Positions 1 through 23,194 of a stretch of 39,194 nucleotides of DNA are shown piece after piece. This DNA comes from a virus. Lineage: Duplodnaviria > Heunggongvirae > Uroviricota > Caudoviricetes. The position numbers and the translations under genes are program-made. A model generated the notes under the pieces. It saw nothing but the letters and a program-made list of their open reading frames with translations, ran no database searches and was not told where the DNA came from. Numbering within the stretch: position 1 is the first letter of the stretch; every line of letters starts with the position of its first letter. The DNA is taken from IMG/VR virus record IMGVR_UViG_3300045391_007586, one strand, 5' to 3'.

Positions 1-216
1 TTACCAGTGGAGAAATGCTGCGAGAAATTGAACCCCGCCCCGCGATACGAGACGGCGCTGATTGCCCTTGCCGCGAAGTTGAATGCTCAGCTTCAGCGGC
101 GAACGCTCGCCCGACTGCACTTTGTTGATTTCCATGTCGTCGGGCAGATCGGCCAGGAGCTTTTTCAGCTCCCCGACCGTCTTTGGGGTATGGACTTCGT
201 GGAGCTTCATGGTCAT
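1..216 (-). CDS. Hypothetical protein (71 aa)
   Basis: ATG overlaps the ligase stop (ATGA at 213-216), typical translational coupling; TAA at 1-3. Confidence 0.65.
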   Translation of the reverse strand: MTMKLHEVHTPKTVGELKKLLADLPDDMEINKVQSGERSPLKLSIQLRGKGNQRRLVSRGGVQFLAAFLHW

Positions 217-1607
217 GCCGCCTTCACTGCCGCTTCGAATTGGTCCTGGATGCTTCGCAGGCTGTCGGCTGCGGACTTGTCCGTGCGATAGCCAGCCTCG
301 ACCATGCGCGGCAGGAAGAGCGAGTAGACGCCATCGTTTTCGGCGGGCTTCATGATCGAGTTGGCGCGCACCGCCCAGACCTTGCTCAGATACACGCTCG
401 GGTCGCGCTCGATTGCGTCGCGCAGCGCCTCGTTCTTGATCGTCACATCGACCACAAGCCGCCCGCAGGACGACTGCATCTTGATCGAGCCGGGACGGCC
501 TTCATTCTTCGTGCCGACCGTGCCCGGAACGATCTCGGTTGCTACGAGGTCCACGTCGACTTCGAGCTTCAGCTTCACCTGCTCCTTCGACGTGCCGTCC
601 TTCCAGATCGCTTTGGGCGACTTGATGATCGTGCCTTCCTTGCCCTGCGCCAGGAGTTCGCGGTAGTGCGCATAGGCTTCATCGAGCGAGTGAACGATGC
701 GCGTGTCGATCGGGATCACCGCGGCGCCTTTCTCTTTCATCCCCGCGAGTTGGTCGGCGAGCGCACCGAAGCGCTCCATATACGGGGTGTCACACTTACC
801 CTTCGGCACAGCCATCGAGAGCGGCACCTGATCCCATGCCACCATCATGGGGCGCTGGCCGGGTTCGAAGTCGCCGCCGCTGAGCACGCTGTTGAGAACA
901 CCGTTGCCCTGCTCGCGCGGGAGGATGTTGTCGTCCGGGCCAATCACGAGCATTTCGCCATGCAGCTCGTATCCGGGCTTCGTGTGGTGGCGGATGATGC
1001 TTGCCACACCGGGGAATTTCAACGGGTCGAACGGCGAGCCCTGACGGCTGCGGATGGCGATCGATCCGTCCTCGTAATGGTCGACGTTGACGAACATGCC
1101 GTCAGCCTTCTCCTGCGAGAAGACGCCGCGCGCCCAATCCCATTGATCGAGCTTCGCAGCCTTCGGCAGCGAGCATCGCATGTAGGGGAACTCGGGAATC
1201 AGACCGGGCTTGACCTTGTTGACGGTCGACTCGCCGAAGCCAGCACGCAGGTCCATGTTGAGCACGCGAGCGAAGAGCTGCGACGACTCGGCGTCGAGAC
1301 GGTTGATCTCCTTCTCGATCTCAGCTTGCGCGTCATTGCCAGTCAGTCGCCGGCTCGCGAGCCCGTTGATGACGTGCCAGGTCGTGTCGTCGAACTGCGC
1401 GCCCGCATCATCGTCGGTGCCCGTGATGTCGCGCCCCTTGATCCCGGTGACGCCATACGAGACAGTTGGGTCCAGCGCCGCCTTCAGCACTTGCTGCATC
1501 AGCGAGTCATGGATGTGCTCGCCCAGAATGGCGATCTTTTCGTTCTTGCTGGACGTGCTGGCGATTTGCTCGATCGCCTCGAAAACCTTCACGCTTGTAT
1601 AAGTCAT
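213..1607 (-). CDS. lig: ATP-dependent DNA ligase
   Basis: KxDG motif (EKADG), ELHGEM, EGTIIK and a C-terminal OB-like region (LFLPRMV). Start moved from 1664 to ATG 1607, which has AGAGGA upstream. Confidence 0.92.
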   Translation of the reverse strand: MTYTSVKVFEAIEQIASTSSKNEKIAILGEHIHDSLMQQVLKAALDPTVSYGVTGIKGRDITGTDDDAGAQFDDTTWHVINGLASRRLTGNDAQAEIEKEINRLDAESSQLFARVLNMDLRAGFGESTVNKVKPGLIPEFPYMRCSLPKAAKLDQWDWARGVFSQEKADGMFVNVDHYEDGSIAIRSRQGSPFDPLKFPGVASIIRHHTKPGYELHGEMLVIGPDDNILPREQGNGVLNSVLSGGDFEPGQRPMMVAWDQVPLSMAVPKGKCDTPYMERFGALADQLAGMKEKGAAVIPIDTRIVHSLDEAYAHYRELLAQGKEGTIIKSPKAIWKDGTSKEQVKLKLEVDVDLVATEIVPGTVGTKNEGRPGSIKMQSSCGRLVVDVTIKNEALRDAIERDPSVYLSKVWAVRANSIMKPAENDGVYSLFLPRMVEAGYRTDKSAADSLRSIQDQFEAAVKAA

Positions 1608-1617: not shown

Positions 1618-1632
1618 TTCCTCTGGTAAATG

Positions 1633-2133: not shown

Positions 2134-2155
2134 GACTCTCCCCACAAAAGGTCGT

Positions 2156-2359
2156 CTACCAGGCGCCCCAATCTGGACGCGCCTCCTGTCTTGCTGCCAA
2201 CGCTCGAAGCTGTCCCGCAAACGTCGCCCGAGCAATCAGCTTCTTCGACTCCTGCTCCAACACCTGCGTCAGAACGCTGTGCAGCCTGAACTTCGCGTCG
2301 TATTCGACGAGCTTTCGCACGTCTGGCGACATTCCGGCGAGCAATGCTTCAGCGCTCAC
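2156..2359 (-). CDS. Hypothetical protein ending in DWGAW
   Basis: GTG at 2359 overlaps the upstream stop (GTGA); fills the gap between two genes. Confidence 0.6.
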   Translation of the reverse strand: MSAEALLAGMSPDVRKLVEYDAKFRLHSVLTQVLEQESKKLIARATFAGQLRALAARQEARPDWGAW

Positions 2360-2868: not shown

Positions 2869-2882
2869 AAAACCTCCCTCTG

Positions 2883-2930
2883 TATATCAGCTACGACTGA
2901 TATTATGCCCGCTCGATGCAGGCGCTACAA
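2883..2930 (-). promoter_or_regulatory. Promoter TTGTAG-N17-CATAAT with operator site 2 (2883-2900) just downstream
   Basis: -35 at 2925-2930, -10 at 2902-2907; site TATATCA-GCTA-CGACTGA. Confidence 0.72.
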
Positions 2931-2937
2931 GCGACCG

Positions 2938-4032: not shown

Positions 4033-5372
4033 TCCACACCCAGAACCGCTTGCAGGAACTTCATCTTGGCGAGGTCTTGCTTGATCCGCACCGTGAAGCC
4101 GCCCGCCTGGTTCCGCGACGCCGCGAAGTAAAGCCGGAGCTCGTTGTTGTCGCGCTCTTCGTCCGTGATGTTGAGCGAGATCACCAGGTCCGCGATCCGA
4201 ATCTTGTTGAAGTCTTCGGCGACGTGCTCGGCCTTCGCCACCACCGACTTGAACCCTTCCCGGTTGGTCTGCGTTGCGGTCAACACCGCCGCGTTTTCTT
4301 CGAACGCAATCGCACGCAGGCCCACGAAGATGCTCTTCGAGTTCTCGATCGGATCGTTCGTGCGGTAGTCGGGCGCCATGATGTCGCCGTAGTCGACAAC
4401 GATCATGTCGTATTTGATGCCGTTCGCCTTTTCCTTCTCGATCAGATGACGCAGCGCTTTCGGCGTCAGTGAGCCGGTCGGGTATTCGGCGATGTTCAGC
4501 AGACCCGCCTTCGCGCCGGCCGCTTCGATGCGTGCTTCGACTTCCTTGATGTGCTTGATCAGGTCGGTGATGGCCGTATCTGCTACGCACGCATCCAGGC
4601 GCTCGCTGATGATCTCCTTCGACACTTCGAGCGTGACATACAGCACCTTCAGGCCGGCGAGCGCGGCAGCTTGCGCGAAGTTGATCAGCGCGGTCGTTTT
4701 ACCGGCCTTCGCCCCGCCCATGAGGACAGTGAGCTCGCGCCGGCCCCAACCGCCGTGATAGAGCAACTTGTCGAGCTGCAACGAGCCAGTGGAGATACCG
4801 GTCGGTGGCAGCTTGCCCATCGCCTTGTCGTGCCGAACCTCCGAGCGCTGCTTGATGTTCTCGAAGTAGTTGTAGACATCGGTCGTCATGAGCATGCCGA
4901 CCTGATTCGCCTTCTTGATCAACTCTTCGACATCGTTGTAGCGCTTCTTCTCCAACATCGGGATCGAGTCGAGAATCGCCTTCGCAAGCGCCTGGTGCCG
5001 CACGAACTCCGCGACCTTCTCGGCCGCGTAAGCGCCGCCAGTGATGATGTTGTCGCGCGCCCGCTTGTATGCAGCCACGACCTCCGGCATGGTCTCGGGC
5101 CGGATGACGCCGCTCGCCTTCTTCTCCTTCAGCAGGTTCATCAACGTCGCCGAATCGGGCGTCGTGTTGTATTTGTTGAAGAAGTCGGTTGCGATGGCGA
5201 CCAGATGCGCCTCCCCCGCGTTCTCGAAGTAGTCGGGCTTCAACACGTGGCCCACTTGGCGCATGAAGTCCAGATCCTTCAACGCGTGAGTCGTCAGTTT
5301 CGACTGGAACTCCGCGTCAAACTCGAACTTCACAACCTCTTCCTTCTCTGCTACTGCTACCGCTTCCGTCAC
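4029..5372 (-). CDS. dnaB: Replicative DnaB-like (SF4) helicase
   Basis: Walker A GGAKAGKTT, YVTLE, Walker B IVVDY, TATQTNR; GTG start with GGGAG RBS. Confidence 0.93.
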   Translation of the reverse strand: MTEAVAVAEKEEVVKFEFDAEFQSKLTTHALKDLDFMRQVGHVLKPDYFENAGEAHLVAIATDFFNKYNTTPDSATLMNLLKEKKASGVIRPETMPEVVAAYKRARDNIITGGAYAAEKVAEFVRHQALAKAILDSIPMLEKKRYNDVEELIKKANQVGMLMTTDVYNYFENIKQRSEVRHDKAMGKLPPTGISTGSLQLDKLLYHGGWGRRELTVLMGGAKAGKTTALINFAQAAALAGLKVLYVTLEVSKEIISERLDACVADTAITDLIKHIKEVEARIEAAGAKAGLLNIAEYPTGSLTPKALRHLIEKEKANGIKYDMIVVDYGDIMAPDYRTNDPIENSKSIFVGLRAIAFEENAAVLTATQTNREGFKSVVAKAEHVAEDFNKIRIADLVISLNITDEERDNNELRLYFAASRNQAGGFTVRIKQDLAKMKFLQAVLGVE

Positions 5373-5417
5373 GTCACTCTCCCATGCAAACCATCATGGG
5401 CGCATCGCGCCCGCCTC

Positions 5418-5750
5418 TTAGTGAACTGTCTCGTCCGTTGCTTCGACAGTCGGCTCCTTGCTGCGCAAGTCGATCGGGTAGAAGCCCTTGATGGCGTGTT
5501 TGAAGAAAACGACATCCCGCGTGCCGTGATTGACGGTGCCGGTGCGAATGGTGATGGTGAATTTATCGCTGTGCGTGACCGTGCCATCGATCGGCACGTC
5601 GTCGTCCAGGAACGTCACGCGAATGCGCGCTTTCGACTTCTCCAGCTCTTTGAGAAAGAACTCGTGACCCTTGAGCTCCTGATTGTTGCGACCTGCGGAT
5701 TGAGACTTCCGCGGTCCCTTGCGATGCAGCGTGCCCTCGCTGCGTGCCAT
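5418..5750 (-). CDS. hfq: Hfq-like (Sm-fold) RNA-binding protein
   Basis: FFLKEL...IRVTF...IDGTVTHSDKFTITI...VFFKHAIKGFYP aligns by eye to Hfq FLNAL...LQGQIESFDQFVILL...VYKHAISTVVP. Start ATG 5750 has AGAGGGG RBS. Confidence 0.8.
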   Translation of the reverse strand: MARSEGTLHRKGPRKSQSAGRNNQELKGHEFFLKELEKSKARIRVTFLDDDVPIDGTVTHSDKFTITIRTGTVNHGTRDVVFFKHAIKGFYPIDLRSKEPTVEATDETVH

Positions 5751-5834
5751 ACGTTGCCCCTCTACTGCCTGCTCACGACGCACCGCGTCATAATTCTGGG
5801 AAAACAAGGTAATGCTCCTGTCCTGGTTTGAGTT

Positions 5835-5852
5835 GAAAAAGCCCGACCGGGC
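5835..5852 (-). terminator. Putative Rho-independent terminator
   Basis: Minus strand GCCC-GGTC-GGGC followed by TTTTTC; short stem. Confidence 0.5.
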
Positions 5853-5865
5853 GAGCTGCAAATAT

Positions 5866-5883
5866 ACCGTCAGTTACGACTGA
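5866..5883. promoter_or_regulatory. Operator-like site 3 (ACCGTCA-GTTA-CGACTGA)
   Basis: Intergenic, upstream of the Hfq-like gene; followed by TATATT on the minus strand. Confidence 0.7.
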
Positions 5884-5884
5884 T

Positions 5885-6601
5885 TCACGAGGCGCATTGA
5901 ATCGCGCCGAATACGATTGCCTGACCGAACTCCCGGATCGCGCGCTCAATACGCACTGCGCCCCGGAGATACATAGCCGTATGCAAGGCGAACTCCCTTA
6001 CCGGGGATCGTTTGACCATCTTGATCACGCGATCCTCATACTCCTGTTGGTCCGGCGCTCCGACGTAGTTCTCGACGCGGTAACGCGGGTGCGTCGCGAA
6101 CTGGAACTTGCCGCGCTGTTCCATCGCCCACGCGTCCAACAGATCGATCCAGAGGTCTGCGTCAGAGTAGATGTGTGCCGGTCGGGGCGGCTGCTTCCAG
6201 CCACGCCGCAGACACCACTCCATCGCATAGCGCATTGCGAAGTCGTAACGCACGCCGGCCTCGTCGCACTTCTGACGCAGCGTCCAGAACGCCGTCTTCT
6301 CGCGCGAGTCGATGAAATCCTTGCCCTTGAACCCTTTCGACCACATCATTCCCAAGTCTTTCGCTTGTGAAAGGAACTTGCCGTAGGCTCTGCTGTAGCA
6401 CTGCGCAAGGTAATATGTCGCTTTAGTAGGATGCCAGGGCCGGTAGTCAAACCACTTCTTGCCGAACAGCTCAGCTTCTCGACGTAGCGCCTGGAGCGGA
6501 ATGTGACTTATGGCAAGCAGTTCATAGAACTCCCGCCTGAACTCCCCGCCGAAAAATGAATCGTCGCGCATCGCGTAAGTTGGGGCCGCGCCCCTCTCCA
6601 T
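5885..6601 (-). CDS. Conserved-looking hypothetical phage protein (about 238 aa)
   Basis: Aromatic-rich globular ORF with its own promoter; start is ATG 6601 or GTG 6613. Confidence 0.75.
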   Translation of the reverse strand: MERGAAPTYAMRDDSFFGGEFRREFYELLAISHIPLQALRREAELFGKKWFDYRPWHPTKATYYLAQCYSRAYGKFLSQAKDLGMMWSKGFKGKDFIDSREKTAFWTLRQKCDEAGVRYDFAMRYAMEWCLRRGWKQPPRPAHIYSDADLWIDLLDAWAMEQRGKFQFATHPRYRVENYVGAPDQQEYEDRVIKMVKRSPVREFALHTAMYLRGAVRIERAIREFGQAIVFGAIQCAS

Positions 6602-6605
6602 GTAG

Positions 6606-6656
6606 TCTGTCACTTATGACTGATAGATTGTAGCTGTCTTTTATCTATAGAAGCAA
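6606..6656 (-). promoter_or_regulatory. Promoter TTGCTT-N18-TACAAT with operator site 4 (6606-6623) downstream
   Basis: -35 at 6651-6656, -10 at 6627-6632; site TCTGTCA-CTTA-TGACTGA. Confidence 0.68.
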
Positions 6657-6688
6657 CTACTCGGCCCCAAGAACCGTTCGGAGCAGCT

Positions 6689-7114
6689 ATGAATCTAATT
6701 TCCGTCGTAGCCCTCGTCATTATCGGCGTCGGCGTCTTGCTACTACTTCTGCTACAGATCACCCGACGCAACACTTTCGAGGAAGAGCGACTCATTTGGA
6801 AACAATTGAGCTCCACGAGCCCTCGGGAACTCCGCTACGCCCCCGAGCGCGCTGGCCCTCCCCGTAAGCCGGATGAAGATGATTTTGACTATGCATGCCG
6901 GAACCTCTCGTATTTACAATCGCATCTTCAAGACAACCTGAACAAAAACCGCGCCAAGGAGCGAGTCACGCTGATCATGCAGGCAGTGATCTCGCTTCTC
7001 GTGCTTTGCTCGGCCCTCTACATTATTGTCTTCCTCAAAGACGCCGAGACATCGGTAAAAGACTGGGCTTACGGCGGTGCCGGCACCGTTATTGGTTTCT
7101 GGTTGCGCTTCTGA
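6689..7114 (+). CDS. Hypothetical membrane protein; only credible plus-strand gene
   Basis: N-terminal hydrophobic helix plus two C-terminal ones; exactly fills the gap between two minus-strand genes; looks more AT-rich by eye. Confidence 0.75.
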   Translation: MNLISVVALVIIGVGVLLLLLLQITRRNTFEEERLIWKQLSSTSPRELRYAPERAGPPRKPDEDDFDYACRNLSYLQSHLQDNLNKNRAKERVTLIMQAVISLLVLCSALYIIVFLKDAETSVKDWAYGGAGTVIGFWLRF

Positions 7115-7115
7115 C

Positions 7116-7868
7116 CTAAGCGGCTTCCCTCTCGTATGCCTCGACGATTTCCTGAACCAGCCCGGAGCGCACCACGTCGCTGCGGCCGAACTCGACCACC
7201 TTCACGCTCGGGATGAAACTGACGCGCCTCACGGCGTCGACCAGACCCGATTCACCGCGGATGTCCTGCTGACGCACGTCCCCGTTGACGATCACCTTGC
7301 AGTCCTCGCCGATGCGTGTCAGGAACATCTTCATCTGGGTCGGCGTTGTGTTTTGCGCCTCATCCAGAATGACCCACGCGCTCTTGAACGTGCGCCCACG
7401 CATGTATGCGAGCGGCACCGCCTCGATGTTGCCGACACGCAAGTGGTATTCGAAGGCGCCCTTCCCCAACCGATGAATCAGCACGTCGCGGAACGGTTGC
7501 AGATACGGGTCAAACTTCTCTTCGAGCTCGCCGGGGAGAAAGCCCAGATTCTCGCCAGCTTCGATCGCCGGCCGGGTGATGATGATCCGCTCGGTCTCTT
7601 TCGCTTCGAGCGCCTGTGCAGCCAATGCCGCCGCGAGCCACGTCTTGCCCGTGCCGGCCGGGCCGGTAGCAAATGTCAGGGTGAAGTGTTTGATCGCCTG
7701 AATGTAGCGCTCTTGAGCGCCGGTCTTCGCGCGGATGGGCGAGTTGTCTCGCACAAAGCGGCGCGGTTCTGGCATGTCGTCGTAAAAAAGGGCGTCGTTG
7801 TCGGCTTCTCGCCGCGACGCCCTCGCTTGCTGCTTCAGTTGCTTCTTTGCCAAGCCGCGCTGTGCCAT
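7116..7868 (-). CDS. phoH: PhoH-family ATPase
   Basis: GPAGTGKT, ITRPA, LGFLPG, YMRGRTF, ILDEAQN, GDVRQQD, DVVRSGLV. Start ATG 7868 (TTG 7904 possible). Confidence 0.95.
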   Translation of the reverse strand: MAQRGLAKKQLKQQARASRREADNDALFYDDMPEPRRFVRDNSPIRAKTGAQERYIQAIKHFTLTFATGPAGTGKTWLAAALAAQALEAKETERIIITRPAIEAGENLGFLPGELEEKFDPYLQPFRDVLIHRLGKGAFEYHLRVGNIEAVPLAYMRGRTFKSAWVILDEAQNTTPTQMKMFLTRIGEDCKVIVNGDVRQQDIRGESGLVDAVRRVSFIPSVKVVEFGRSDVVRSGLVQEIVEAYEREAA

Positions 7869-11117: not shown

Positions 11118-12413
11118 TTAGATCGCCTTTATAGGAATCGTCTTTCGCAGCTTGGGCCGGCGAATATCTCCATCGATATGCACCATGATCTTGCCGGTGA
11201 GCCAATACAAGGCGCCGGACATGACCGCAGTGTTGAACTGAAATTCGTTCTCGCACGCCACATCAAATGCAGCACCTTCCTGATACATGCAGGCGCCGCC
11301 GCAAAGCTGGAGCACCGGGCAATGAGCGCAGTTCGGACGCTTGGACCAATGCCATGAGGTATCCACTGCGACCGACTCGAAGTCGCTTACATGGCCGACG
11401 CCGTGCTTACCCTTCGCGCCGACGTTCTGACATGTCATGACGTTGCCCTTCAGGTCAACCGCGAGCTGATCGGGCCGATCCATGCCGCACTTCTGCCACA
11501 GGGCGGTCGACGGCCGCTTCTGGCGCAGCGAGTCGATGAAGTTCGCCGCCTTGGCCGCAATCGTGTTGTCGTAGCCGCCAGGCGTGCGATTCACGAGCGC
11601 GTTGATGATGTTCCACTGGAGCTGCGAGTATTGCGCCTGCGTCCAGGTAGCGTCGTCTGTCCGGCCGTCCGAGTGCGGGTGAACGATACCCTCGAACGAC
11701 GCCATCACCGTCTCGCCGATCTTTTCGCTCAACCACTGCCGGGGCGAATCGATGTCGAGGTTTGCCGGCGTGATGACGGTGTTGAACGACATCATCCCCT
11801 TGCGGCCGATGCGTTGCCACAGCTTGCGCAGCATCGCGGCCTTCTCCGGGTCGTCGAATGGGTCCGGCCCGCGCAGGTGTTGCGCCTTCGCGTCGTGCGA
11901 TACGACGATGTAGATGTTGTGCCTGTCGATGAAGTCGATCTTCTCGTCGTCGAGCACGCTACCGTTCGTCACAACCAGCATGTGCGCATCCGGGAAGCGC
12001 TCGCGCATCGCCGGAATCAACACCTGCATGTGCTTCCAGTAGGCGAATGGCTCACCGCCCCAGAATTCGATCTTGTTTGGCTTGCTTTTGAGCCATGAGT
12101 CAAGATTTGCGAGGAAATCTTCCGCGTCCTTGACGTTCGAGACCGTTGCGTCTGGAATCTCCGACGACTGAAGGCAATAGGAGCACGCGTAGTTGCATTG
12201 CAGTCCGAGCTGGATTTTCAGGCGAACCGGCGCCCCGTGCTTCTTGCCGGGGCTGTCAGGCGAGATCGCGGTTGCGACCGGCCAGTTTCTCGCCTTCTCG
12301 TCGTAATCGAGCGGGACCGGGTTCCCGGCCTCGTCCGTCAGCGTGCTCGTGTGCGGGTCGTATAGGAGATATGAAACCGACCCATCCCCGCCCTGCATTG
12401 TCAGGCGATACAT
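11118..12413 (-). CDS. Radical SAM enzyme with SPASM domain
   Basis: CxxxCxxC (CNYACSYC), GGEP, VTNG, and SPASM-type cysteines CG...GNVMTC...CAHCPVLQLCGGAC...C. Confidence 0.93.
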   Translation of the reverse strand: MYRLTMQGGDGSVSYLLYDPHTSTLTDEAGNPVPLDYDEKARNWPVATAISPDSPGKKHGAPVRLKIQLGLQCNYACSYCLQSSEIPDATVSNVKDAEDFLANLDSWLKSKPNKIEFWGGEPFAYWKHMQVLIPAMRERFPDAHMLVVTNGSVLDDEKIDFIDRHNIYIVVSHDAKAQHLRGPDPFDDPEKAAMLRKLWQRIGRKGMMSFNTVITPANLDIDSPRQWLSEKIGETVMASFEGIVHPHSDGRTDDATWTQAQYSQLQWNIINALVNRTPGGYDNTIAAKAANFIDSLRQKRPSTALWQKCGMDRPDQLAVDLKGNVMTCQNVGAKGKHGVGHVSDFESVAVDTSWHWSKRPNCAHCPVLQLCGGACMYQEGAAFDVACENEFQFNTAVMSGALYWLTGKIMVHIDGDIRRPKLRKTIPIKAI

Positions 12414-13120
12414 TACTGGACACCTACCGTAACCGCGCCGACGCCCGAGTAATACCGGTAGCCAGCCTTGACAGTGATCGAATCGCCCGCGCTCAGGAGG
12501 TCGGCGCGGACCTGAACGGAGCCCTGCCCCTTGTCGTCGAGCTGGAGACGACGCTTGTTGAGATAGCCTGCCGAGGCTTTGAGCTCCAGCGAGACAGGGA
12601 GCGCCAGCGGAGCGCCGTCTTTGTCCGTGAGCTGCACGTCAATCGTCGCGACGCCATCCGGGGCGACGGTGGCAGGGCCGGTCAATTTCAGACTCGTGAA
12701 CTGCTTGCGCCATGCGCCCGAGTTCGGCTCGATTTCCGTGAGCGTCACGTTCGAGTCCACTTCATGCGCTGCGGTGAACAGCACATGACACTCGTCGAAC
12801 GACTTGACGTTCCGGTGCGGGACGAAAACCTGGATCAACAGCGAAGTGTTCAGGTCGCGTGCCACTTCGCTCAAGCTGCGCTTGCCCACCTGGCTGTGTG
12901 CGAAGACGTTTGCCACACCGGGTAGCATGACTCGACCGGGATCAACGACCGGGTTGAACCGGACGGCATAGAGGGTGAAGTCCCAAAAGTCGGCACGCGC
13001 CGCGATCTCCGCAAACGTCAGGCTTGTGGATTCATCGCCGATCGACATTTCGATCTTGTCGCTTGCATAGTTGACCTTCGACGGCAGGTCATGAGGAAAC
13101 GCTTTTGTGACAAAGTTCAT
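12413..13120 (-). CDS. Hypothetical protein with C-terminal Ig-like (Big/invasin-type) domain
   Basis: ATG 13120 with GGAG RBS; C-terminal beta-rich region (ATIDVQLTDKDG...GQGSVQV...ITVKA); stop overlaps the rSAM start (TAATG). Confidence 0.7.
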   Translation of the reverse strand: MNFVTKAFPHDLPSKVNYASDKIEMSIGDESTSLTFAEIAARADFWDFTLYAVRFNPVVDPGRVMLPGVANVFAHSQVGKRSLSEVARDLNTSLLIQVFVPHRNVKSFDECHVLFTAAHEVDSNVTLTEIEPNSGAWRKQFTSLKLTGPATVAPDGVATIDVQLTDKDGAPLALPVSLELKASAGYLNKRRLQLDDKGQGSVQVRADLLSAGDSITVKAGYRYYSGVGAVTVGVQ

Positions 13121-13168
13121 TCGATACTCCGAAAGTTGATCAGATTCTAAAGCCAAGCCGCCGAAATA

Positions 13169-13186
13169 TCAATCAACGTTGACTGA
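13169..13186. promoter_or_regulatory. Operator-like site 7 (TCAATCA-ACGT-TGACTGA)
   Basis: Within the last codons of fibre 3, upstream of the Ig-like/rSAM pair. Confidence 0.65.
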
Positions 13187-14356
13187 TAGTCCGGCCCAGG
13201 CAATCGACTCGTAGTCGAACGCGAACTCGTTCACGCGCGCACCTACGACATATCCGTTGACGATGATCGGGCTTCCTTCTGTCACGGGAAGGTAGAGTTG
13301 CGTATCGGGACCGTAGGACGGGTCAGCGACCACCGCTTGCCCCTTCCAGCCGTCAATGTGCGCGTATTCGAAGCCGTCGCCCACGAACATGCTGTAGTTG
13401 TCGCGAAGGCCGGCAAGGTGCCCGATTCGCACTTCGAAGCGCCACTGATCCGGGTTCGCGCACCACCACCATTCGTCGCCGTCCTGATCGCGCGCCCAGA
13501 GCATGTGCTCTTCGCTCCAGCTCAGAGAGCCGTCCGCGAACGTCATCATGCGTCGCTCGCCGAGGACTGGCCGATCGATGTCGACGACTTGCACGGGGCC
13601 ATACACGCCCATCACCATGTCGCCAATCTGCACGTCCTCGATGTTCTTCCAAGACCCGTCACCCATGAGGACTTGCGATCCTGCCGGAAAGCACGAGCAC
13701 GGGCATTGGCAATTGCAGTTGCAGTTGATAGCGTTCGGCCCGCGAGGTCCGGGAGGTCCGGGAGGGCCTGGAGGCCCGTAACCGCCTCCCGGACCCGTAG
13801 CGCCCTGATAGCCCGTTGGTCCGGTCGGCCCTGGGGCGCCGGTCGCCCCGGTAGGCCCTGTGGGGCCGGTCGGCCCAGGCTTCCCGATCTTGATTGCGCC
13901 AAGGTCGGTGCCATTCGCGAGCTGATAGCCAGTGACCGTCGCTGTGCCGTTGGATTGCAGCCCGCCGTTCGCGACGAGTTGGCCCGACATTGTGCCGCCC
14001 GACTTCATGATTCGAAGCGCAATGACGGCCTGCGCAAAGGCGGTCGTCGCGAGCTGCGAGTTGTTTGTCCCCACCGGCGCGGTCGGCCCCTTCGGGACTC
14101 CTGTGAATGCGGGCGAGTCAAGGTAAGCGGCAACGCGATTCAGGTCAAACGCCAGCGTCCAGGTTGCAGGAGAAGCGCTGGTCAGTTGGTAGAGCTGGAG
14201 CAAGTCCGTGCGAAGACAGAACATACCGACCACGAGATTCGTTGTCGGAAATGCCGTGCCTGCACTGGCAGACAACGCCGTGCTGTCGTTGTTCACCAGC
14301 TCGCCAATACTACCTTCGAGCGTTTCCGCGCTCGACACCATTGTGAAGTTTTGCAT
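13169..14356 (-). CDS. Tail fibre paralogue 3: fibre N-domain + collagen + CxCxCxCxCxC + Hint domain
   Basis: [27 protein letters not shown] fibre repeat; 17 GXY triplets (13733-13885); [11 protein letters not shown]; [21 protein letters not shown] and SEEH Hint motifs. Confidence 0.85.
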
Positions 14357-14362
14357 GTGACC

Positions 14363-15052
14363 TTAGCTGCAATAGACCGCGAATCCTGAAAGGGCTCCAG
14401 GCGGGCCTGGAGGCCCAGGTGGACCCGGAGGCCCAGGCGGACCCGGAGGTCCATAAGGGCCGGGCGCACCCGTCGGGCCACGCGCCCCGGTAGTCCCTGT
14501 GGGGCCGGTCGGACCTGCGGGGCCGACTGGACCTGTAGGTCCAACGATGAGCGCGCCCAAATCCGTCCCGTTTGCGATCTGGAAGCCGGTGACGGTGCCA
14601 CTAACGCCGCTCGATGCGCGGAAATTGCCGGCGCTCGCGGGTGCCGAACTCGTGATCAACCCCGAAACTGTGTCGGTCGTATTGGAGACGAGCAGCGCGA
14701 ATAGAGCCTGAATGAAAGCGGTTGTCGCAAGCTGGTTCGAGCTGTCGAATCCGGCCAGGTTGGAACCCGTCGTTGCGGTCGGAGCCTGCGGCGTTCCCGT
14801 AAATTCGGGCGAGTCCAGGTAGGCCATCAAGCCGCTCATGTCGAACGCGAGCTTCCACGTCGGCGCCAGGTCCGTCAGCTCGAACAGTTGGTTCAGGTCC
14901 GTTCGAAAGCAGAACATGCCCACTTGCAGGTTCGCGGTGGGGAATGCCGTTCCGGCGTTGCACGACAAGACGGTCTGGTCATTCTGAAGGAACAACGCCA
15001 GCGAGTCCTTCAGCTTCATGTCCGCGGTGACGGGCGTGTATTGCTGCGTCAT
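14363..15052 (-). CDS. Tail fibre paralogue 2: fibre N-domain + collagen, no Hint
   Basis: Same N-domain ([22 protein letters not shown]); 17 GXY triplets (14390-14542); ends SGFAVYCS. Start overlaps the paralogue 1 stop (ATGA). Confidence 0.85.
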
Positions 15053-16224
15053 GCCAATCCCTTCCAGTCGATTTTGCTGTAGTCGAATCCGGCCTCATTC
15101 ACGGATGCGCCGACCAGGTAGCCATTGACGATAATTGGCGGGCCATCAGTCACAGGAAGGTAGAGCGGCGTCTCGGCGCCCCAACCTTGCTCCACCACTA
15201 CCTTGCGCTCGACGAAACCGCTGACGTTCGCAAACAATACGTCGTCGCCGGAAAGCACGCTGTAGTTGTCCCTCAAGCCGCCCACCTGCCCTACCGCAAC
15301 CTCATAGCGCCATTGGTCGGGATTCGCTGACCACCACCACTGCTGATCGCCACGCTTGGCCCAAAAGCAGTGCTCTTCGCTCCAGAGCAGCGAACGATCG
15401 GAGAAGCCCATCATGCGGCGAGGCCCCAACGAAGTAACGTAAAGGTGCTTCACGCGCGCAGGGCCATCAACACTCATCACGAGGTCGCCCGCGCAGACGC
15501 GCTCGACAGCCTTTGTAGTCCCATCCGCCATGAGAACGGTCGCACCTGCGGGGAAGCAGCAGCAAGGGCATTGGCAAACGCAGTTGCAGTTCGACAGGCC
15601 GGAGACGCCAGTAGGCCCCGGAGGTCCAGGTGGCCCCGGAGGTCCGTATGGACCGGCGTAGCCAGTCGGACCAGTTGCGCCGGGTGCGCCGGGTGCGCCG
15701 GGTGCGCCCGTAGGTCCGGCCGGACCCGCTGGACCGGTCGGGCCTACGAGGACCGTGCCAAGGTCAGCACCGCTCGCGATCTTGAATCCGGTGTTTGTGA
15801 CGGATGTGCCGGCCGACTTGAATGATTGAGCTGTCAGCAGCCCATACATTGCGCCGCCCGTGCGCAGCAGCCCGAATGCGGCGACCGCCTGCGCGAACGC
15901 CGTCGTCGCGAGCTGGTTCGTGTTGATGTTCGATGCCGGGGTGGGCGCTGTCGGAATGCCGGTGAACGTCGGCGAGTTCAGGTAGGCGCGCGTGCGGTTG
16001 AAGTCGACGAGAAGAATCCAGCTTGGAGTCAGCGAGCCGTTTTGCACGGCATACTGATAGAGCTGAAGCAGGTCCGTGCGAAAACAGAACATCCCGACCT
16101 GAAGATTTTTCGTCGGGAACGACGTGCCCGCGCTGTTGGACATCGCGGTAAGGTCGTTGTTGGTCAGTTCCACCAACCCGTTCGCGATTGAGTCGCTAAG
16201 TTGGATGTTCGTGAATTTTTGCAT
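15049..16224 (-). CDS. Tail fibre paralogue 1: fibre N-domain + collagen + CxCxCxCxCxC + Hint domain
   Basis: [12 protein letters not shown]...QLATTAF repeat; 17 GXY triplets (15592-15744); [11 protein letters not shown]; [24 protein letters not shown] and SEEH. Confidence 0.85.
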
Positions 16225-16274: not shown

Positions 16275-17801
16275 TTAGTAGCCGTGCGCCGCCCAACTGA
16301 TCGTGCCGGCGACGTTCTGGCCCGTTGTCGGATCGACGAGGATGACTGTGAATCCGGTGTTCGTCGGGGAGCCAACAAAGCGAGGAACCGCCAGCAAGTC
16401 CGTGCCGCCCTTCAATTGCAGGGTGATCTCGGGCACTTTGTGATACTTGCGGTTGAAAGTGACCGTGACACCGCTCGCGGCGTTCGTGATCGTCGCCTCG
16501 CCGCTATCATTCACGTCTGGCACGTCAACCGTAATACTCATGTCGGTCAGCACGCCGCGGTCGAGCGTGAACGACTGCACGACGGCGCGGAAAAGCGCCT
16601 TCTGGTAGGTGTATGTGCCAGTGATGAAGGGCTTGAAGTTCGAGTAGCCCGGAGGCGACGACGCCTGAATGAGCGCACGGAATGCGTCGTCATCGAGCGA
16701 ATCGGTCGTAATGGAGAGATTCGAGACCACGCCGTTACCGTGGCGTCGATATTCCTCCAGCAGGTTAAACGCTTCCGCCTGTGGAAGCGTCGTCGCCTTC
16801 GCGAGCGCATCCTTCGTCTTGAAACCTTCGCTTAGCAGACGAAGGTATTCCACCGTGCGGCCGAACAGCTCCGCCGTGGCAATCGCTTCGTCGATGCCAA
16901 GCGAAGCGTTCTTGACGATGAAGTCCTCGGTCGAGAAATTCTCGGCGAATGGCAGCTTGGTTGCCTGCGCATACTTCTCCAGCACCGATACCGCCTCACT
17001 CAACCTGTGAATGATCGAACGGGCGAGCGATTCGCCAACTTTGACACTCTCGTGCGGCCGAAGGCCATAGTCCTTATCGAAACCAGACTCGACAGCCGCG
17101 AACGCTTCAGCAAGCGGCAGCGTGAAGCTGTTTCCCTGGAGCTCCTGCGCCTTGATATGCTCAACGACGTGCAGGATCGACGAGGCAATGTGAGTGTAGG
17201 CTTCGGCCGTTCGCCACGATTCGGGAATCCCCTTCCCGAACCGCTTCAGGTAGTCGTCTGAAGCCTGAAAAAACTCAGCGAGGGCCTTCGACAGGTCGTT
17301 CCCATACTGATCGGCAATGGAGAAGCCGTCATGCAGGTGAAAGTCCTGCGCACGCGCCAGCGACTCGCCGACGACAATCGGCTCGTGCGGATTCTTTACG
17401 AACGAGCGCGTGACACCAACCTCGGCAGCGCTGAAGCTCTCGGCGAATGGCAGAATTGGGTGGTTGCCGTAGCGCTCAAGCGTGGAAATCGCCTCCGCGA
17501 TCTGCCGCACCTGATTGCGCAAAAGACTATCACTGACATGGATAGCCTCATGCGGGCGCAAGCCATAGTTGCGAACAGCCGCCTCAGCCGTCGAGAATTG
17601 CTCTGCAACGGGCTTTGTTGTCGCCTTACCGAGGCGTTCGACGTTAGTCCACCCCTCGGTCGTGCTGACCGTGTAGTTCGAGTCGTAGGACGTGTTCCAC
17701 GACTTCTGCCCTCGATAATCCGTCCAGCCAAAACCACTCCCGGCCCACGTGTAGTAAGGGCCGGGAGTGTTCTGGACGCTGACTGTCGTTGGTGTAGTCA
17801 C
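16275..17801 (-). CDS. Putative tail-associated protein with internal repeats and C-terminal beta-sandwich
   Basis: Lies in the tail module; repeated PHExxxVx(D/E)SLxR units; C-terminus VTVTFNRKY..VPEI...TGFTV...ISWAAHGY resembles fibre-tip (H-type lectin-like) folds. Confidence 0.6.
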   Translation of the reverse strand: MTTPTTVSVQNTPGPYYTWAGSGFGWTDYRGQKSWNTSYDSNYTVSTTEGWTNVERLGKATTKPVAEQFSTAEAAVRNYGLRPHEAIHVSDSLLRNQVRQIAEAISTLERYGNHPILPFAESFSAAEVGVTRSFVKNPHEPIVVGESLARAQDFHLHDGFSIADQYGNDLSKALAEFFQASDDYLKRFGKGIPESWRTAEAYTHIASSILHVVEHIKAQELQGNSFTLPLAEAFAAVESGFDKDYGLRPHESVKVGESLARSIIHRLSEAVSVLEKYAQATKLPFAENFSTEDFIVKNASLGIDEAIATAELFGRTVEYLRLLSEGFKTKDALAKATTLPQAEAFNLLEEYRRHGNGVVSNLSITTDSLDDDAFRALIQASSPPGYSNFKPFITGTYTYQKALFRAVVQSFTLDRGVLTDMSITVDVPDVNDSGEATITNAASGVTVTFNRKYHKVPEITLQLKGGTDLLAVPRFVGSPTNTGFTVILVDPTTGQNVAGTISWAAHGY

Positions 17802-18336: not shown

Positions 18337-21300
18337 TTAATAGAGAGCCACCGTTGTGAAGGCTCCCTGCGGCAGCAGGCTCTCGGTGTCCGAGTTGACC
18401 TGCTGGCCGTCCATCGAACCGACGAAGATGCTGCGCGTCGCTTGTCCTTGGTTGATCGCCACAAGGTATTGAATTCCGGTCGTCAGAACGAACGGCACAT
18501 ATTGGCGATACGCCTTCCCGTCTTCGAGATAGAACGCCTGCTTTTGAGCCGAGTAGCCAACACGCAGTAGCGCGCCATTAGCGCCGGTCAATGTCAGAAA
18601 GATGCAATCGGCAATCTCTTGCGGCGCAACCCAGAACGAGGTCGAGAAGACGGACGGCACGTTCACAGCCCACTTCACGAACGTCGTGTCGACGACATCG
18701 ACGCCCTGCCCGAAGCGGCCCTTTCCGTAGCTAACGCCGAGGGACTGCGTAGGCTGATCGCCCTGCAATCCCTGCAACGTTCCATTGAGCCCAAAACCGT
18801 CGACATCGTTCGGTTGAACGCCCTGGAACAAAGAAATCTGGGCGAACCCGTTCATGTTCGTCAGCGTCCCGGACGGGAGCCAACTTTGCCCCGCCTGCGC
18901 ATCGCCCCACGTGAAGTCGGCGCTATCCCATGTCAGCCCCGTCTTCACGGCGGCGTTCAAGCCGACCGAGACGGTGTTGTTCGCCGTGAACGTATCCCCG
19001 AGGTCCACCGCCATCATGTATTCGCCCTGCGTCACGCCGTCGTCCATGACGAGTTCGCCATCTTCGACCGTGAAGCCGAAGGCGGTGTCGGGGAAATTGT
19101 TCTGCGCCGCATCATCGACATAGACGACGTTGGTATTCGACGGCTGCGCGACGACGGCAGTCGAGAATACCGGCGTGTCACCATAGATGCCCGGTGATGC
19201 AACTGCCTTGATCCAGAATGTCGGCTGGCCGGAATACCCAGACGGCATCGTGTAGGTCGTCGCTTTGACCTGCGTTACTAGAATCGATGTGTTCCACGTC
19301 AACCCTTGGCGAATCTCGTAATACTCGATGTTGTCTTCCGGGTTCTTGTTCCAGACGAACACGAGGGATTGATACGACTGATTTACATCGAATCCCGTCA
19401 CCGCAACCGGCGCGTTCAGAGTGACGCCCACCTCCGCGGCACTCGTGGAATAAATCTTGGCGGTATTGATCGCCTTGATCCAATACTGCTTCTGCCCTGC
19501 GGTCGATTCGTGCGCCGAGAACGAAGTGCCCTGATAGTTCGTCACCAGAACTGTGCCGTCATCCCAATTGACCCCTTCCCGAATCTCGTAACCGGCAAGG
19601 TCGACTTCGGTGTTCGGCGACCACTGAAGCAGAATGTCCGACACGCGAACGGTCAAGGTGAAGTCCGCCACCTGAGCGGGCGGCAGCAGTTGCCCTTGAA
19701 CGGTATAGGTAATCTGCGGCGCGAGCCCGTATGGAGCTTTTGCCCCGACGACATCCTGCGCCTGCACCTTGAAAGTGACTACCTGGCCCTGGTTCAGGTC
19801 GATCGTGGCCCGGTCGTATGCCTTGTCGGTCAGCAGTTGCCACGCCCCGCCGTCCACACTCGTATAGACGGACGAGTTCGCGTAGGTGCTCTGCGCCGAC
19901 GAGAACGACACCGTGACATGGCTGCGGAAGTTGTTGCCCGTCCGGTAGAGCTCTTCGGTCACGCCGGCAATCGTCGCCTGCTTGACGGTCGGATCGAGCG
20001 CAGAATAGTCCGGCTCCGGGGCCGCGCTCGCGCCGGAAAGATCGTAGATCGACGGGTTGTATTCGATCGCCGTGATGTCGCGCCGGTAGTCGGTCGTGCC
20101 GCTGATTGCCGTGACGCGGAACGGCTTGCCATACTTCCCGACCGAGCCAAACATCCAGTTCTGGAACTGTGCGGGCGCGGCCGGCAGTGGCGACTGGAGC
20201 GTGAGCTGCGTGTTGCCGGTCTGCCCGTTGTTCACGACGCCGACCGTGATCATGCAGTCGGTGTCGTAGAGCTGGTAGGTATATCCGTTCTGGAATGGCG
20301 CGGTCGAATCGACCATGACGCCCCACAGGCCGGCATTGTTGTAATGCGTGCCCGTGACCTCGAAGTCCCCGATCAGCGCACCGCCTTGATATGCCCAGAT
20401 GCGGCGCACGCGCTGAACACCGTCGAACCCAGACAGCCAGAGCACGTTGCCCGACATGCCGACGATCGTCCCGGCGTAGCGTTGCAGGCTATCCCACAGA
20501 ACCATGAGCTGATATTGCAGCCCCGGCGTCATATCAACCGGGCGGTCGAGCTGCACGACAGTCTGCGTCGAGCCCGCAGCGAAACGACCGCCATAGCCCC
20601 AATCCGGCATGTCGTGCTGCACGAGAATCACATCGCCGACCGTGCAGGCGACTGCTTCGAGCGGCGCACCGAACTGGATCGTCTGAGTGACGTAGCGGTT
20701 CAGGTTGAGCTGGAACAGCGCTTCCTGATACGCGCGCTGATAGTCGACAATGCCGATCAACTGAATCTGCGCAGTCTTGGGCGCGCGGCCAGCGACGATC
20801 GCGGACGGGTCATAAACCCGAACACGATGCTCCTTGTAGTGGTCGGTCTGGTCGTAATATGCGACCTCGATCTCGTTTGCGCGGTCGGTGATGCTCGACC
20901 ACGACTCCTGGAAGGAGCCCTCGATGATGTTCGCCACCGAGAACATCATGACCGGATCGGCCGGCCCTTCGATCGCGATCGTGTAGCGGGTGCCAGCATT
21001 CACAAGCTGCCCATGCCCGACACGCAGCACAATCTGAAGCGCATCCCAGAGGCTCTGCTGCTGATCGATGACGCCGTTGAACGTCAGCCCTTCGGCGTTG
21101 CAGAAATCTGCCCACCGCTTGAACGCGTCCAGGTCGAGCCGCGACGGGTCCATGCCGCCGCCGTATCGCGTGTTCGTCATCATGTCCCAGACGATCCACG
21201 CGGGGTTATTCCAATTGCTGTAAACCCATTGCGGAACATCCGACCAGGACACGTCCACGTAGCCCCAAATCAGCTTGCCGTGGTTGAGGTAGGTGACGTT

Positions 21301-22830
21301 CGGGATCGATGAGAGCTGATTGGTAAGCAGCACTTGCACCGCCACGAGAGCGGTGTTGTTGTAGCCAACCGAGCCGTAGGTGATCTCGTTGATGTCCGAG
21401 ACCGACACGATGTCCATCGTGTATTGATCCGACAACGCGGCCACGTTCGACGTGCGTCGCATGCGGATGTTATACATCCCGGTCGGAACCTGCTGCGACC
21501 AGACAGACATGCGCACCGCCGAGCGGTTGTTGTCCGAAATCTGGATCACGCCCGAGTAGCGCGGAATCTGCATCGACGCGCGATTGCCCCACACGTTGAT
21601 GCCGACGTAGTTCCGATTGATCGTATCGAGGTCTTGCTGGCTCACCGGCCCGTAATTCGGGTTGCCCGTGGAGTCGCTGTAATACCAGTTGTAGGTCGGC
21701 GGAACTTCGGTGTATTGCCACCCCCAAGGGCCATTCGTTTCGACGACATACATATTCGACGTGTCGTCGTAATAAAGGTAGTTGGCCGGAGGCGTGATCG
21801 TTGCCCACACCCACTGCATCGTCTCGATGGTTGTCGTGGGCGTCACCGATTGCCAGGCGCCCGTCCCGAGCGGTGCGAACTGCATTTCCATTTGGACGGA
21901 AATGCCGCTGGAACTGCCACTGTTCTTGTCGACGTGGTAGAGACCGTCCGGCGCCACGACGTCCACGCGGAACGCATCAATCGGCCCCTGGGTCGTGTAG
22001 TAGACCCATTCCGTCGTCAGAGTCTCGTTGAAACTGAACGGCGCGATGTTCTGTGAGAATCCGGGCAGCGGTTGCTGCTGCGGATTTCCCGGCAACGTCC
22101 ACACGTTGACGTTCTGGTAGAGCGTGTAGTCGTTGAAGTCGAACTGAACGTCCGTAATGCCAGCGATCGGCCCCTCGCCGGCCGCAATCAGCATGTGCAG
22201 GATTTGTGTCGCGTAGCCCTGTGGATCGGTCGCGCCGTTATCCACATACATATCGATGATGTTGCCGGCCATGCGAACGGTCCCGTAAACAACCGGGACC
22301 GGCGTGTTTTCGAGCGACGTGTTCTTTGCGCCGTCGATACCGTAGGTTGGCGACGTTTTGCCCTGATCCGTGTTGGCTTTGGGCGCGGGAAGAAGCGCAT
22401 TAACGAGCAGCGTGCCCGCGATCGTCACGGCCATCGAGGCGGCAACGCCAGCAGCGGCGCCCGCTACAGTGCCGAAGCCGCCGTATGCCGCAGCAGCAGC
22501 GCCGCCCGTGTAGACGGACGCCACAGCAACCGCGATCATTGCGATGATGCGGAAAATCCCCTTGCCGCCGCCACCACCGCCTTGTGGGACGGGACAAAGC
22601 ACGATGTTGTCTGTCGGTGCCAGATACGTCACCGGGAAGTTATCCGGCTCGACGACCTTGCCATTGATCGAGACAACGTGCTCGATTGACCCTGCCGGAA
22701 AATAATCGGCAAGCGTGAAGTCGCCGACCCATTCAATCTCTTCGCGAACGTGCTCGCGAGGATTGAACGGGTTGACGATACGAATGACGGGAATCTTACT
22801 GGACGGCTTGAGCGCTACGAGGTCCGACAT
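18337..22830 (-). CDS. Central tail fibre / host-specificity protein (lambda J-like, I-like N-terminus)
   Basis: About 1500 aa; Gly/Ala-rich TM-like segment then PVPVVYG; FN3-like repeats (LQWSPN.E.DLAGYEIR, FVWNKN..NIEYYEIR). Start ATG 22830 (TTG 22845 possible). Confidence 0.88.
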   Translation of the reverse strand: MSDLVALKPSSKIPVIRIVNPFNPREHVREEIEWVGDFTLADYFPAGSIEHVVSINGKVVEPDNFPVTYLAPTDNIVLCPVPQGGGGGGKGIFRIIAMIAVAVASVYTGGAAAAAYGGFGTVAGAAAGVAASMAVTIAGTLLVNALLPAPKANTDQGKTSPTYGIDGAKNTSLENTPVPVVYGTVRMAGNIIDMYVDNGATDPQGYATQILHMLIAAGEGPIAGITDVQFDFNDYTLYQNVNVWTLPGNPQQQPLPGFSQNIAPFSFNETLTTEWVYYTTQGPIDAFRVDVVAPDGLYHVDKNSGSSSGISVQMEMQFAPLGTGAWQSVTPTTTIETMQWVWATITPPANYLYYDDTSNMYVVETNGPWGWQYTEVPPTYNWYYSDSTGNPNYGPVSQQDLDTINRNYVGINVWGNRASMQIPRYSGVIQISDNNRSAVRMSVWSQQVPTGMYNIRMRRTSNVAALSDQYTMDIVSVSDINEITYGSVGYNNTALVAVQVLLTNQLSSIPNVTYLNHGKLIWGYVDVSWSDVPQWVYSNWNNPAWIVWDMMTNTRYGGGMDPSRLDLDAFKRWADFCNAEGLTFNGVIDQQQSLWDALQIVLRVGHGQLVNAGTRYTIAIEGPADPVMMFSVANIIEGSFQESWSSITDRANEIEVAYYDQTDHYKEHRVRVYDPSAIVAGRAPKTAQIQLIGIVDYQRAYQEALFQLNLNRYVTQTIQFGAPLEAVACTVGDVILVQHDMPDWGYGGRFAAGSTQTVVQLDRPVDMTPGLQYQLMVLWDSLQRYAGTIVGMSGNVLWLSGFDGVQRVRRIWAYQGGALIGDFEVTGTHYNNAGLWGVMVDSTAPFQNGYTYQLYDTDCMITVGVVNNGQTGNTQLTLQSPLPAAPAQFQNWMFGSVGKYGKPFRVTAISGTTDYRRDITAIEYNPSIYDLSGASAAPEPDYSALDPTVKQATIAGVTEELYRTGNNFRSHVTVSFSSAQSTYANSSVYTSVDGGAWQLLTDKAYDRATIDLNQGQVVTFKVQAQDVVGAKAPYGLAPQITYTVQGQLLPPAQVADFTLTVRVSDILLQWSPNTEVDLAGYEIREGVNWDDGTVLVTNYQGTSFSAHESTAGQKQYWIKAINTAKIYSTSAAEVGVTLNAPVAVTGFDVNQSYQSLVFVWNKNPEDNIEYYEIRQGLTWNTSILVTQVKATTYTMPSGYSGQPTFWIKAVASPGIYGDTPVFSTAVVAQPSNTNVVYVDDAAQNNFPDTAFGFTVEDGELVMDDGVTQGEYMMAVDLGDTFTANNTVSVGLNAAVKTGLTWDSADFTWGDAQAGQSWLPSGTLTNMNGFAQISLFQGVQPNDVDGFGLNGTLQGLQGDQPTQSLGVSYGKGRFGQGVDVVDTTFVKWAVNVPSVFSTSFWVAPQEIADCIFLTLTGANGALLRVGYSAQKQAFYLEDGKAYRQYVPFVLTTGIQYLVAINQGQATRSIFVGSMDGQQVNSDTESLLPQGAFTTVALY

Positions 22831-23194
22831 ACTTATAGAATCCAACGAGACGAAGTTTCCAATTCGCGATCGGCTCGACGAGAACCCCGCCGCTGCGCTC
22901 CCATGAATGGATCATTCGGTATCGGTCAAGCATGTAGCCCACATGCGAGACATACCGGCCAATACGAAAAAGCGCGACAGCGCCGCGATCGCATTTCGTC
23001 TCTTCCCACTGAGGCAGGGCCTCGCCGACCAGCGCCGCAACAACTCCTTGATCGGAGTGCGCACCGAAGTCGGGAATCACAATGCCGTCACGCCTCGACA
23101 TTTCCATGACGAGCCCGTAACAGTCGAACGAGTCAGGACCACGCCCGCGCACCTTGAACGGAACGCCGATGAGGTCTACGTGGTTAGCCGGCAT
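22796..23194 (-). CDS. NlpC/P60 tail-tip protein (lambda K-like)
   Basis: GRGPDSFDCYGLV and SHVG catalytic motifs; true start ATG 23194. Confidence 0.88.
   Translation of the reverse strand: MPANHVDLIGVPFKVRGRGPDSFDCYGLVMEMSRRDGIVIPDFGAHSDQGVVAALVGEALPQWEETKCDRGAVALFRIGRYVSHVGYMLDRYRMIHSWERSGGVLVEPIANWKLRLVGFYKYVGPRSAQAVQ

Follow-up and report, generated by a model that had tools for sequence, protein, structure and literature searches.

Collagen-like tail fibres of a Burkholderia-type prophage end in predicted non-splicing Hint domains that may act as self-removing C-terminal caps

To our knowledge, the self-cleaving phage fibre ends that have been described are chaperone domains of the Peptidase_S74 type, which use a Ser-Lys dyad and form a trimeric helical domain. 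Among proteins with a Hint domain, Hedgehog transfers its N-terminal domain to cholesterol and carries a sterol-recognition region of about 60-70 residues. The bacterial intein-like (BIL) Hints process or conjugate flanking polypeptides instead of splicing canonically, and BIL2 conjugates its N-terminal flank to lysines (PMC8616854). Here we describe two tail-fibre genes that end in Hint domains in a stretch of 39,194 nucleotides, referred to as the window, from a virus of the Caudoviricetes (IMG/VR record IMGVR_UViG_3300045391_007586). The window is part of a 109-kb IMG/VR provirus record and the element is a Burkholderia-type prophage. The genes of the region are all encoded on the minus strand and either follow each other closely or overlap.

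Three fibre paralogues are encoded in the window. Paralogue 1 (391 amino acids (aa), 15049..16224, minus strand) and paralogue 3 (395 aa, 13169..14356, minus) each consist of an N-terminal anchor, 17 Gly-X-Y triplets, a ladder of alternating Cys residues, a Hint domain and a short tail. Paralogue 2 (229 aa, 14363..15052, minus) has the same anchor and 17 triplets without a Hint, and ends in ...GFAVYCS before its stop codon. The anchor of about 120 residues matches PHROG tail-fibre families and is common to at least four fibres of the element. The triplets, recognised as Pfam Collagen (1.1e-9 in paralogue 1) and counted, number exactly 17 without interruption in each paralogue (13733-13885, 14392-14544 and 15592-15744, minus). 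This equal number would permit a heterotrimeric collagen stalk.

In paralogue 3 the Hint runs from Cys222 to Ala373 (13238..13693, minus), with the junction Ser221|Cys222, a block B of Ser281-Glu-Glu-His284, and Gly372-Ala373 at its end. The Hint of paralogue 1, from Cys223 to Ala373 (15106..15558, minus) with Cys222 at position -1, is 55.6% identical to this copy, which was the one modelled, and was aligned within the family. The Cys ladders stand directly before Cys1; that of paralogue 1 has 11 residues (15559..15591, minus), and in paralogue 3 linker and ladder together make up 13 residues (13694..13732, minus), the ladder itself 11. Beyond Ala373 follow 18 residues in paralogue 1 (374-391, 15052..15105, minus), including the Tyr and Trp conserved in tails of the family, and 22 in paralogue 3 (374-395, 13172..13237, minus). 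The limits of the two Hints in the original prediction, which was made from the sequence alone, are exact, as the Cys222 codon begins at 13693 and the Cys223 codon at 15558, and the reading frames run to stops at 13169 and 15049. The motifs it named are likewise all there: CFPAG and SEEH in both copies, the longer block-F/G-like motif, Gly-Ala and VNE..FDY...W. Its description of a tail of about 20 residues that lacks a C-extein nucleophile holds for the tail, but the +1 residue is Ser in paralogue 1 (Gly in most of the family). Because the Asn is missing, this copy could not complete splicing despite the Ser.

Sequence profiles recognise the start of the domain. Pfam Hom_end_hint (PF05203) is matched with an E value of 1.6e-8 and 35.3 bits in paralogue 3 and of 4.4e-6 and 27.3 bits in paralogue 1 (gathering cut-off 32.1 bits), in both copies within block A, over the first 40 or so profile positions. 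A weak match to Pfam Hint_2 (E 0.01) in one copy and a match to the PT-HINT model are under threshold. As Pfam sees block A only, sequence profiles alone leave most of the Hint domain unassigned. Residues 210-395 of the 395-aa protein were considered by structure prediction with AlphaFold 2 (AF2), for which an alignment of 46 relatives was built. The model has a mean predicted local distance difference test score of 92.8 and a predicted template modelling score of 0.89, and the post-Hint tail is modelled at high confidence up to about model residue 180. In a Foldseek search against the PDB the top rows are Hint proteins only, with a probability of 1.0, among them BIL2 of the Tetrahymena BUBL locus, the Hedgehog C-terminal domain (Hh-C) and many inteins; the Hint fold that had been proposed from the letters is thus found.

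Structural alignment with VIA-align gave Z scores of 12-16.7 and root mean square deviations of 2.1-2.9 Å over 120-140 residues, covering model residues 13-164/166. The closest match is BIL2 (Z 16.7, 2.2 Å, 139 residues); Hedgehog Hh-C follows with Z about 13 (model 13..166 on Hedgehog 258..402), and inteins, with Z 12-14, align from their residue 1 to their last on model 13..164. Cys222 is accordingly Cys1, and model residue 164, which is Ala373, is the partner of the last intein residue, so that Gly372-Ala373 stand at the His-Asn positions. No PDB Hint aligned beyond model residue 169; residues 374-395 are not part of the fold and occupy the place at which a C-extein or the Hedgehog sterol-recognition region would begin. 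Judged from sequence and model, both C-termini are genuine, complete Hint domains unable to splice. An intein reading was rejected, as there is neither an Asn nor a C-extein.

The same picture is given by the wider family. An exhaustive HMMER search with the domain returned 1197 cluster representatives at E<=1e-3, of which 328 also pass <=1e-10 and 95 pass <=1e-30. In the 175 proteins with a full-length match, Cys1 is 165-248 residues from the protein end, and the domain is therefore always terminal, with no C-extein. Conservation was counted in a MAFFT alignment of 174 of these 175 relatives. Cys1 is kept in all 174, Phe2 in 171, the block-B Ser/Thr (position 60) in 171 and the block-B His (position 63) in 172, as are the Glu/Asp before the block-B His (169), Arg at +47 (169) and Trp66 (170). 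The intein His-Asn positions are occupied by G/S/T and A/G/S, and the +1 residue is mostly Gly. A Trp-rich insert, EWWW.ANP..W, is conserved and specific to the family, and in the post-Hint tail Tyr is kept in 157/174 and Trp in 165/174. As far as residues can tell, the set fits an N-to-S acyl shift and nothing more. The earlier proposal that a Hint at the fibre C-terminus retains the acyl-shift residues only and does not splice is thus borne out by conservation, the AF2 model, Foldseek and VIA-align alike. A Hedgehog-like Asp-Arg after block A was considered and rejected as a family feature; the Asp is found in only 74/174 and is absent from the second window copy.

What related fibres carry in place of the Hint bears on its role. 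About 60 kb away, the same element carries a second fibre module (L091, G000:C1:32022-35882) with reading frames at 194-1381, 1378-2373 and 2337-3758. Its 395-aa fibre has the window-type N-terminal anchor (E 2e-24) and ends in a Peptidase_S74 domain (PF13884, 4e-11), a domain for which neither Hint fibre of the window has a Pfam match. The S74 fibre gene is coupled to the gene directly downstream, which encodes a third Hint-terminated protein of 331 aa; Asn and Cys are very abundant in its middle part, and the -1 residue is Cys. This gene is in turn translationally coupled to a paralogue, 33% identical, of a radical S-adenosylmethionine (SAM)/SPASM enzyme of the window considered below. At the L023 locus a Hint fibre is likewise accompanied by a second fibre on the same anchor, and architectures combining Collagen and S74 are frequent among relatives of the Hint-less paralogue 2. 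That one phage places either S74 or a Hint at the far end of the same anchor is the strongest argument, a contextual one, for the Hint as a removable maturation module.

Paralogue 2 itself supplies a further comparison. Its C-terminus, ...VYCS (14363-14374, minus), is shared by a 77%-identical relative (P0208) and parallels the -2 Cys and -1 Ser of many Hint junctions, e.g. ...QYCS|CFPAG. Paralogue 2 looks like a fibre stopped exactly at the Hint cleavage site, and its conserved ...YCS terminus suggests that fibres can function with a plain carboxylate at -1.

Taken with the fold and the residues kept, these arrangements favour a Hint that acts as a self-removing C-terminal maturation cap, in the position held elsewhere by the Peptidase_S74 chaperone, and we give this explanation about an even chance of being correct. 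The precursor would consist of the anchor, the collagen-like stalk of 17 triplets, the Cys ladder and, as its last 170 or so residues, an autonomous non-splicing Hint of the Hedgehog/BIL type. Following folding or assembly of the precursor, Cys222 (in paralogue 1, Cys223) would attack the preceding peptide bond, with the block-B residues Ser281 and His284, to judge from their conservation, assisting the N-to-S acyl shift. The thioester would then, if standard intein chemistry applies, be resolved by water or cytoplasmic thiols; a thioester exposed in a thiol-rich cytoplasm is by general intein chemistry cleaved by default. Hint and tail would leave, and the mature fibre would end at the -1 Ser or Cys right after the Cys ladder. 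Cleavage, its timing and hydrolysis as the outcome are all steps that we infer. The module looks self-sufficient, because no conserved gene is found beside the Hint across the loci compared. Where the original prediction had offered a self-removing folding chaperone as an alternative, the context agrees with it, through the S74 sister fibre on the same anchor and the Hint-less paralogue ending at the junction; for chaperone activity as such there is only the equivalence of position.

Several features sit poorly with a simple cap. Cleavage would reduce the two Hint-bearing fibres of the window to collagen stalks that carry a 13-residue Cys tip but lack a globular domain at the distal end, an odd shape for fibres that bind receptors. 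Hint domains also tend to be monomers, which does not favour a role as a trimerisation chaperone like S74. The cap assigns no role to the conserved tail or the Trp-rich insert and leaves the conserved acidic residue next to the block-B His unexplained. In addition, the -1 residue is Ser, Thr or Cys in 163 of the 175 full-length relatives (93%; Ser 76, Thr 64, Cys 23), with Gly in only 3, and Cys stands at -2 in 45; such a preference at -1 is unnecessary for simple hydrolysis and hints at further chemistry.

These residues are among the grounds for a ligation or cross-linking module, in which the thioester is captured by a specific nucleophile through chemistry in the style of Hedgehog or BUBL. 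The captor could be the -1 Ser/Thr/Cys or a ladder Cys of a neighbouring chain of the trimer, giving a covalent knot in a reducing cytoplasm, or else a partner protein, a small molecule or a group on the host surface. Besides the -1 and -2 preferences, the best structural match, BIL2, forms isopeptide conjugates to lysines (PMC8616854), and Hedgehog Hh-C is also among the top matches. The conserved tail sits where a C-extein or sterol-recognition region would begin, the acidic residue before the block-B His could activate a nucleophile, and the mature fibres would otherwise lack a distal domain. Against this, no partner gene is conserved, the tail is short, the plain ...YCS carboxylate of the Hint-less paralogue is itself conserved, and an exposed thioester would be prone to cleavage by the millimolar thiols of the cytoplasm. 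We consider specific capture rather unlikely, although it is the main rival of the cap. Use of the Hint-made thioester for a covalent bond, be it an inter-chain ester or thioester knot through the -1 Ser/Thr/Cys or a transfer of the fibre tip to a nucleophile of a partner or the host surface, is likewise improbable, by a shade more. The heterotrimer that the equal triplet numbers would permit, of two Hint chains and one Hint-less chain, is relevant to cross-linking; its three chains, the third ending in ...CS, could be tied together by two Hints alone. For the Hedgehog-style adduct recruited by the tail, as had been suggested for these fibres, there is no direct support; the tail is about 20 residues long, against about 60-70 in the Hedgehog region.

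The bare stalk that cleavage would leave also raises the thought that the Hint stays on the virion fibre, uncleaved or held non-covalently, as a distal and possibly receptor-binding knob, or in a variant with a latent thioester that reacts only on host contact. The two collagen fibres would have no globular tip if the Hint were lost, and the Trp-rich insert and the tail Trp could form a binding surface. We nevertheless think a retained knob distinctly unlikely. Unlike host-specific tips, the domain remains 45-60% identical across fibres with unrelated bodies and from different hosts, namely Achromobacter and Providencia phages and Paraburkholderia-type elements. The residues that stay invariant are just those of the acyl shift, which speaks for catalysis, and a Hint-less paralogue exists.

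The sequences upstream of the Hint are mutually unrelated, comprising poly-Pro, poly-Gly, Cys ladders and other fibre bodies, with linkers that are Pro- or Gly-rich or Cys ladders. One of these, the Cys ladder, is linked to a neighbouring gene. The window encodes a radical SAM/SPASM peptide-maturase-like enzyme (11118..12413, minus; Pfam Radical_SAM 2.8e-9, NCBIfam SPASM domain above cut-off), for which the best NCBIfam equivalog is PapB (2.9e-18, below its cut-off). Genomic contexts were taken from GenBank phages, IMG/VR loci and the record of the window itself, and the gene content of 23 dereplicated loci was compared (IMG/VR loci, Achromobacter phage JWF, the window and the element's second locus). 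A close homologue of the window enzyme lies within 0.05-2 kb in 11/11 loci whose Hint is preceded by a C-x-C ladder. Of the 12 remaining loci, L024 alone has a Cys-rich stretch of another kind, a C-S/T-G type repeat, and no close homologue of the window enzyme; there a radical SAM gene of a different family (L024:5492-6379), missed by tblastn with the window enzyme, overlaps the end of the Hint gene. Loci lacking any Cys-rich stretch have a close homologue in 0/11 cases; at one of these loci a distant radical SAM gene lies 5 kb off. Fisher's test gives a p of about 9e-6 for the co-occurrence of ladder and enzyme, though the loci are not independent. The radical SAM enzyme goes with the Cys-rich stretch and not with the Hint, which occurs just as well without it. 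A requirement of the Hint for the enzyme was thus rejected, about half of the loci having none.

The association would also suit a Hint that serves mainly as a docking or follower element, offering the Cys ladder to the radical SAM/SPASM maturase before it removes itself, as in leader or follower removal from ribosomally synthesised and post-translationally modified peptides. A radical SAM gene stands beside every Cys-rich pre-Hint locus that was examined (11 close homologues and the different one of L024), and there is precedent for a SPASM enzyme acting on an entire Cys-rich protein, into which it introduces ranthionine cross-links (PMC13692751). As about half of the Hint loci have neither Cys ladder nor radical SAM gene, docking is not the general function of the Hint and is at most an added role in a subset; as its main function we hold it to be quite improbable. 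Under the self-removing cap, the enzyme, if active here at all, would work on the Cys ladder, and the Hint would be independent of it.

Between fibre paralogue 3 and the enzyme lies a gene (12413..13156, minus) for a protein of 235-247 aa with a C-terminal beta-sandwich and no assigned family. The 247-aa product has no match in Pfam or PHROG, and its AF2 model is confident only at residues 142-235 and unreliable for residues 1-141. Only four homologues were found, one from Paraburkholderia nemoris, and the gene between fibre and enzyme in JWF-like loci belongs to an unrelated family (JWF gp029; hhalign probability 0.1 against the window version). The protein was considered as a conserved ligation partner and rejected, since it has so few homologues, is absent from the other loci and is unrelated to its JWF-like counterpart. 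The genes downstream of Hint fibres that have no radical SAM enzyme are heterogeneous, and no partner gene conserved beside the Hint was found across the loci compared.

Hint-ended proteins occur in at least three cultured phages, Achromobacter phages JWF and 2-1 and Providencia phage PSTNGR1. The JWF member is annotated as a 'Hom_end-associated Hint family protein', and its upstream body matches bona fide tail fibres, including one whose annotation names an endosialidase chaperone. The Hint protein of PSTNGR1 (317 aa, L092:4551-5504) follows an unannotated 631-aa gene and is upstream of the large terminase gene, presumably the place where the tail fibre of a T7-like phage would be expected. 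BFVD holds more 'Hint domain containing' proteins from uncultured Caudovirales, one annotated as a collagen repeat protein. Automated annotation thus already names some members as Hint-containing; a search of the available literature on Hint or intein-like domains on tail fibres and on the JWF protein found nothing relevant. In a scan of genome contigs nearly all matches were to unrelated Hint proteins by way of block A, with one full-length relative (L031).

Some members of the family differ in layout. The short Hint proteins of PSTNGR1 and of the second locus of the element (L091:1378-2373) share an N-terminal motif, LP.SG.I....I..EIG, which is duplicated in PSTNGR1 and has no PHROG match; it is possibly an adaptor that docks these short proteins on the preceding fibre. 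Four loci (L012, L014, L020 and L021, about 80-7600) have three or four tandem fibre-like genes with a Hint only on the last; the L012 array is followed by a DUF7941 gene that clusters by sequence with the reading frames in the same position of L014, L020 and L021. On a 281-kb viral contig, a PanD-type aspartate decarboxylase gene (L010:7534-7911; PF02261, 7e-34) stands directly after a Hint-terminated fibre gene, and enzymes of this type are themselves self-processing pyruvoyl enzymes.

In the fibre region, gene order begins with a gpJ-like tip protein (18337-22845, minus; Pfam Phage-tail_3), followed by two small structural genes and then the three fibre paralogues. A 508-aa protein (16275-17801, minus) is encoded between the fibres and the gpJ-like protein. 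Its C-terminal 160 or so residues are homologous to a small gene that in JWF, L017 and L023 immediately precedes the Hint fibre, so that the 508-aa protein is a conserved neighbour and perhaps the site of fibre attachment.

Alongside the S74 chaperones, a second and chemically different solution for the end of a fibre thus appears, a Hint predicted to form a thioester, in hundreds of sequence clusters as well as the cultured phages. Should it be no more than a self-removing cap, fibre maturation modules would gain a new class, and the domain would offer a self-cleaving tag that is natural and portable. Ligation by way of the thioester would be, as far as we know, the first Hedgehog-like protein-adduct chemistry in a virion, and a route to covalent fibre knots in a reducing cytoplasm.

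The domain belongs to the Hint superfamily, and is not an intein, not an S74 domain and not demonstrably a member of the Hog or BIL family. With inteins it shares the fold and the first catalytic step, but it has no His-Asn, no conserved +1 nucleophile, no C-extein and no homing endonuclease, and is never inserted within a host protein. With Hedgehog/Hog Hh-C (PDB 1at0, 6tyy) it shares the Hint fold, Cys1-Phe2 and the block-B (S/T)xxH; in both the C-terminal Asn is absent, so that only the N-to-S acyl shift would be available, and the domain stands at the C-terminus with a conserved extension behind it. The phage family departs from the Gly-Cys-Phe junction of Hedgehog/Hog in that Cys-Phe is kept and -1 is typically Ser/Thr/Cys instead of Gly. 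The phage extension has only about 20 residues; the setting is a virion, and there is no sign of a lipid adduct. Hedgehog has an Asp46/Cys143 pair, for which no clear equivalent was found in the phage Hint. The BIL domains (BUBL BIL2, PDB 6y75 and 6tmm; C. thermocellum BIL, 2lwy) are the best structural matches, with Z scores of 16.7 and 13.8, at a sequence identity of about 15%. BIL2 is flanked by two ubiquitin-like domains, and the lysine that it uses belongs to its C-terminal flank, whereas the phage Hint has no C-terminal domain of any kind. Peptidase_S74 is unrelated in fold, yet it is alike in being a C-terminal self-cleaving module, as proposed here for the Hint, placed after the fibre body, collagen-like fibres included.

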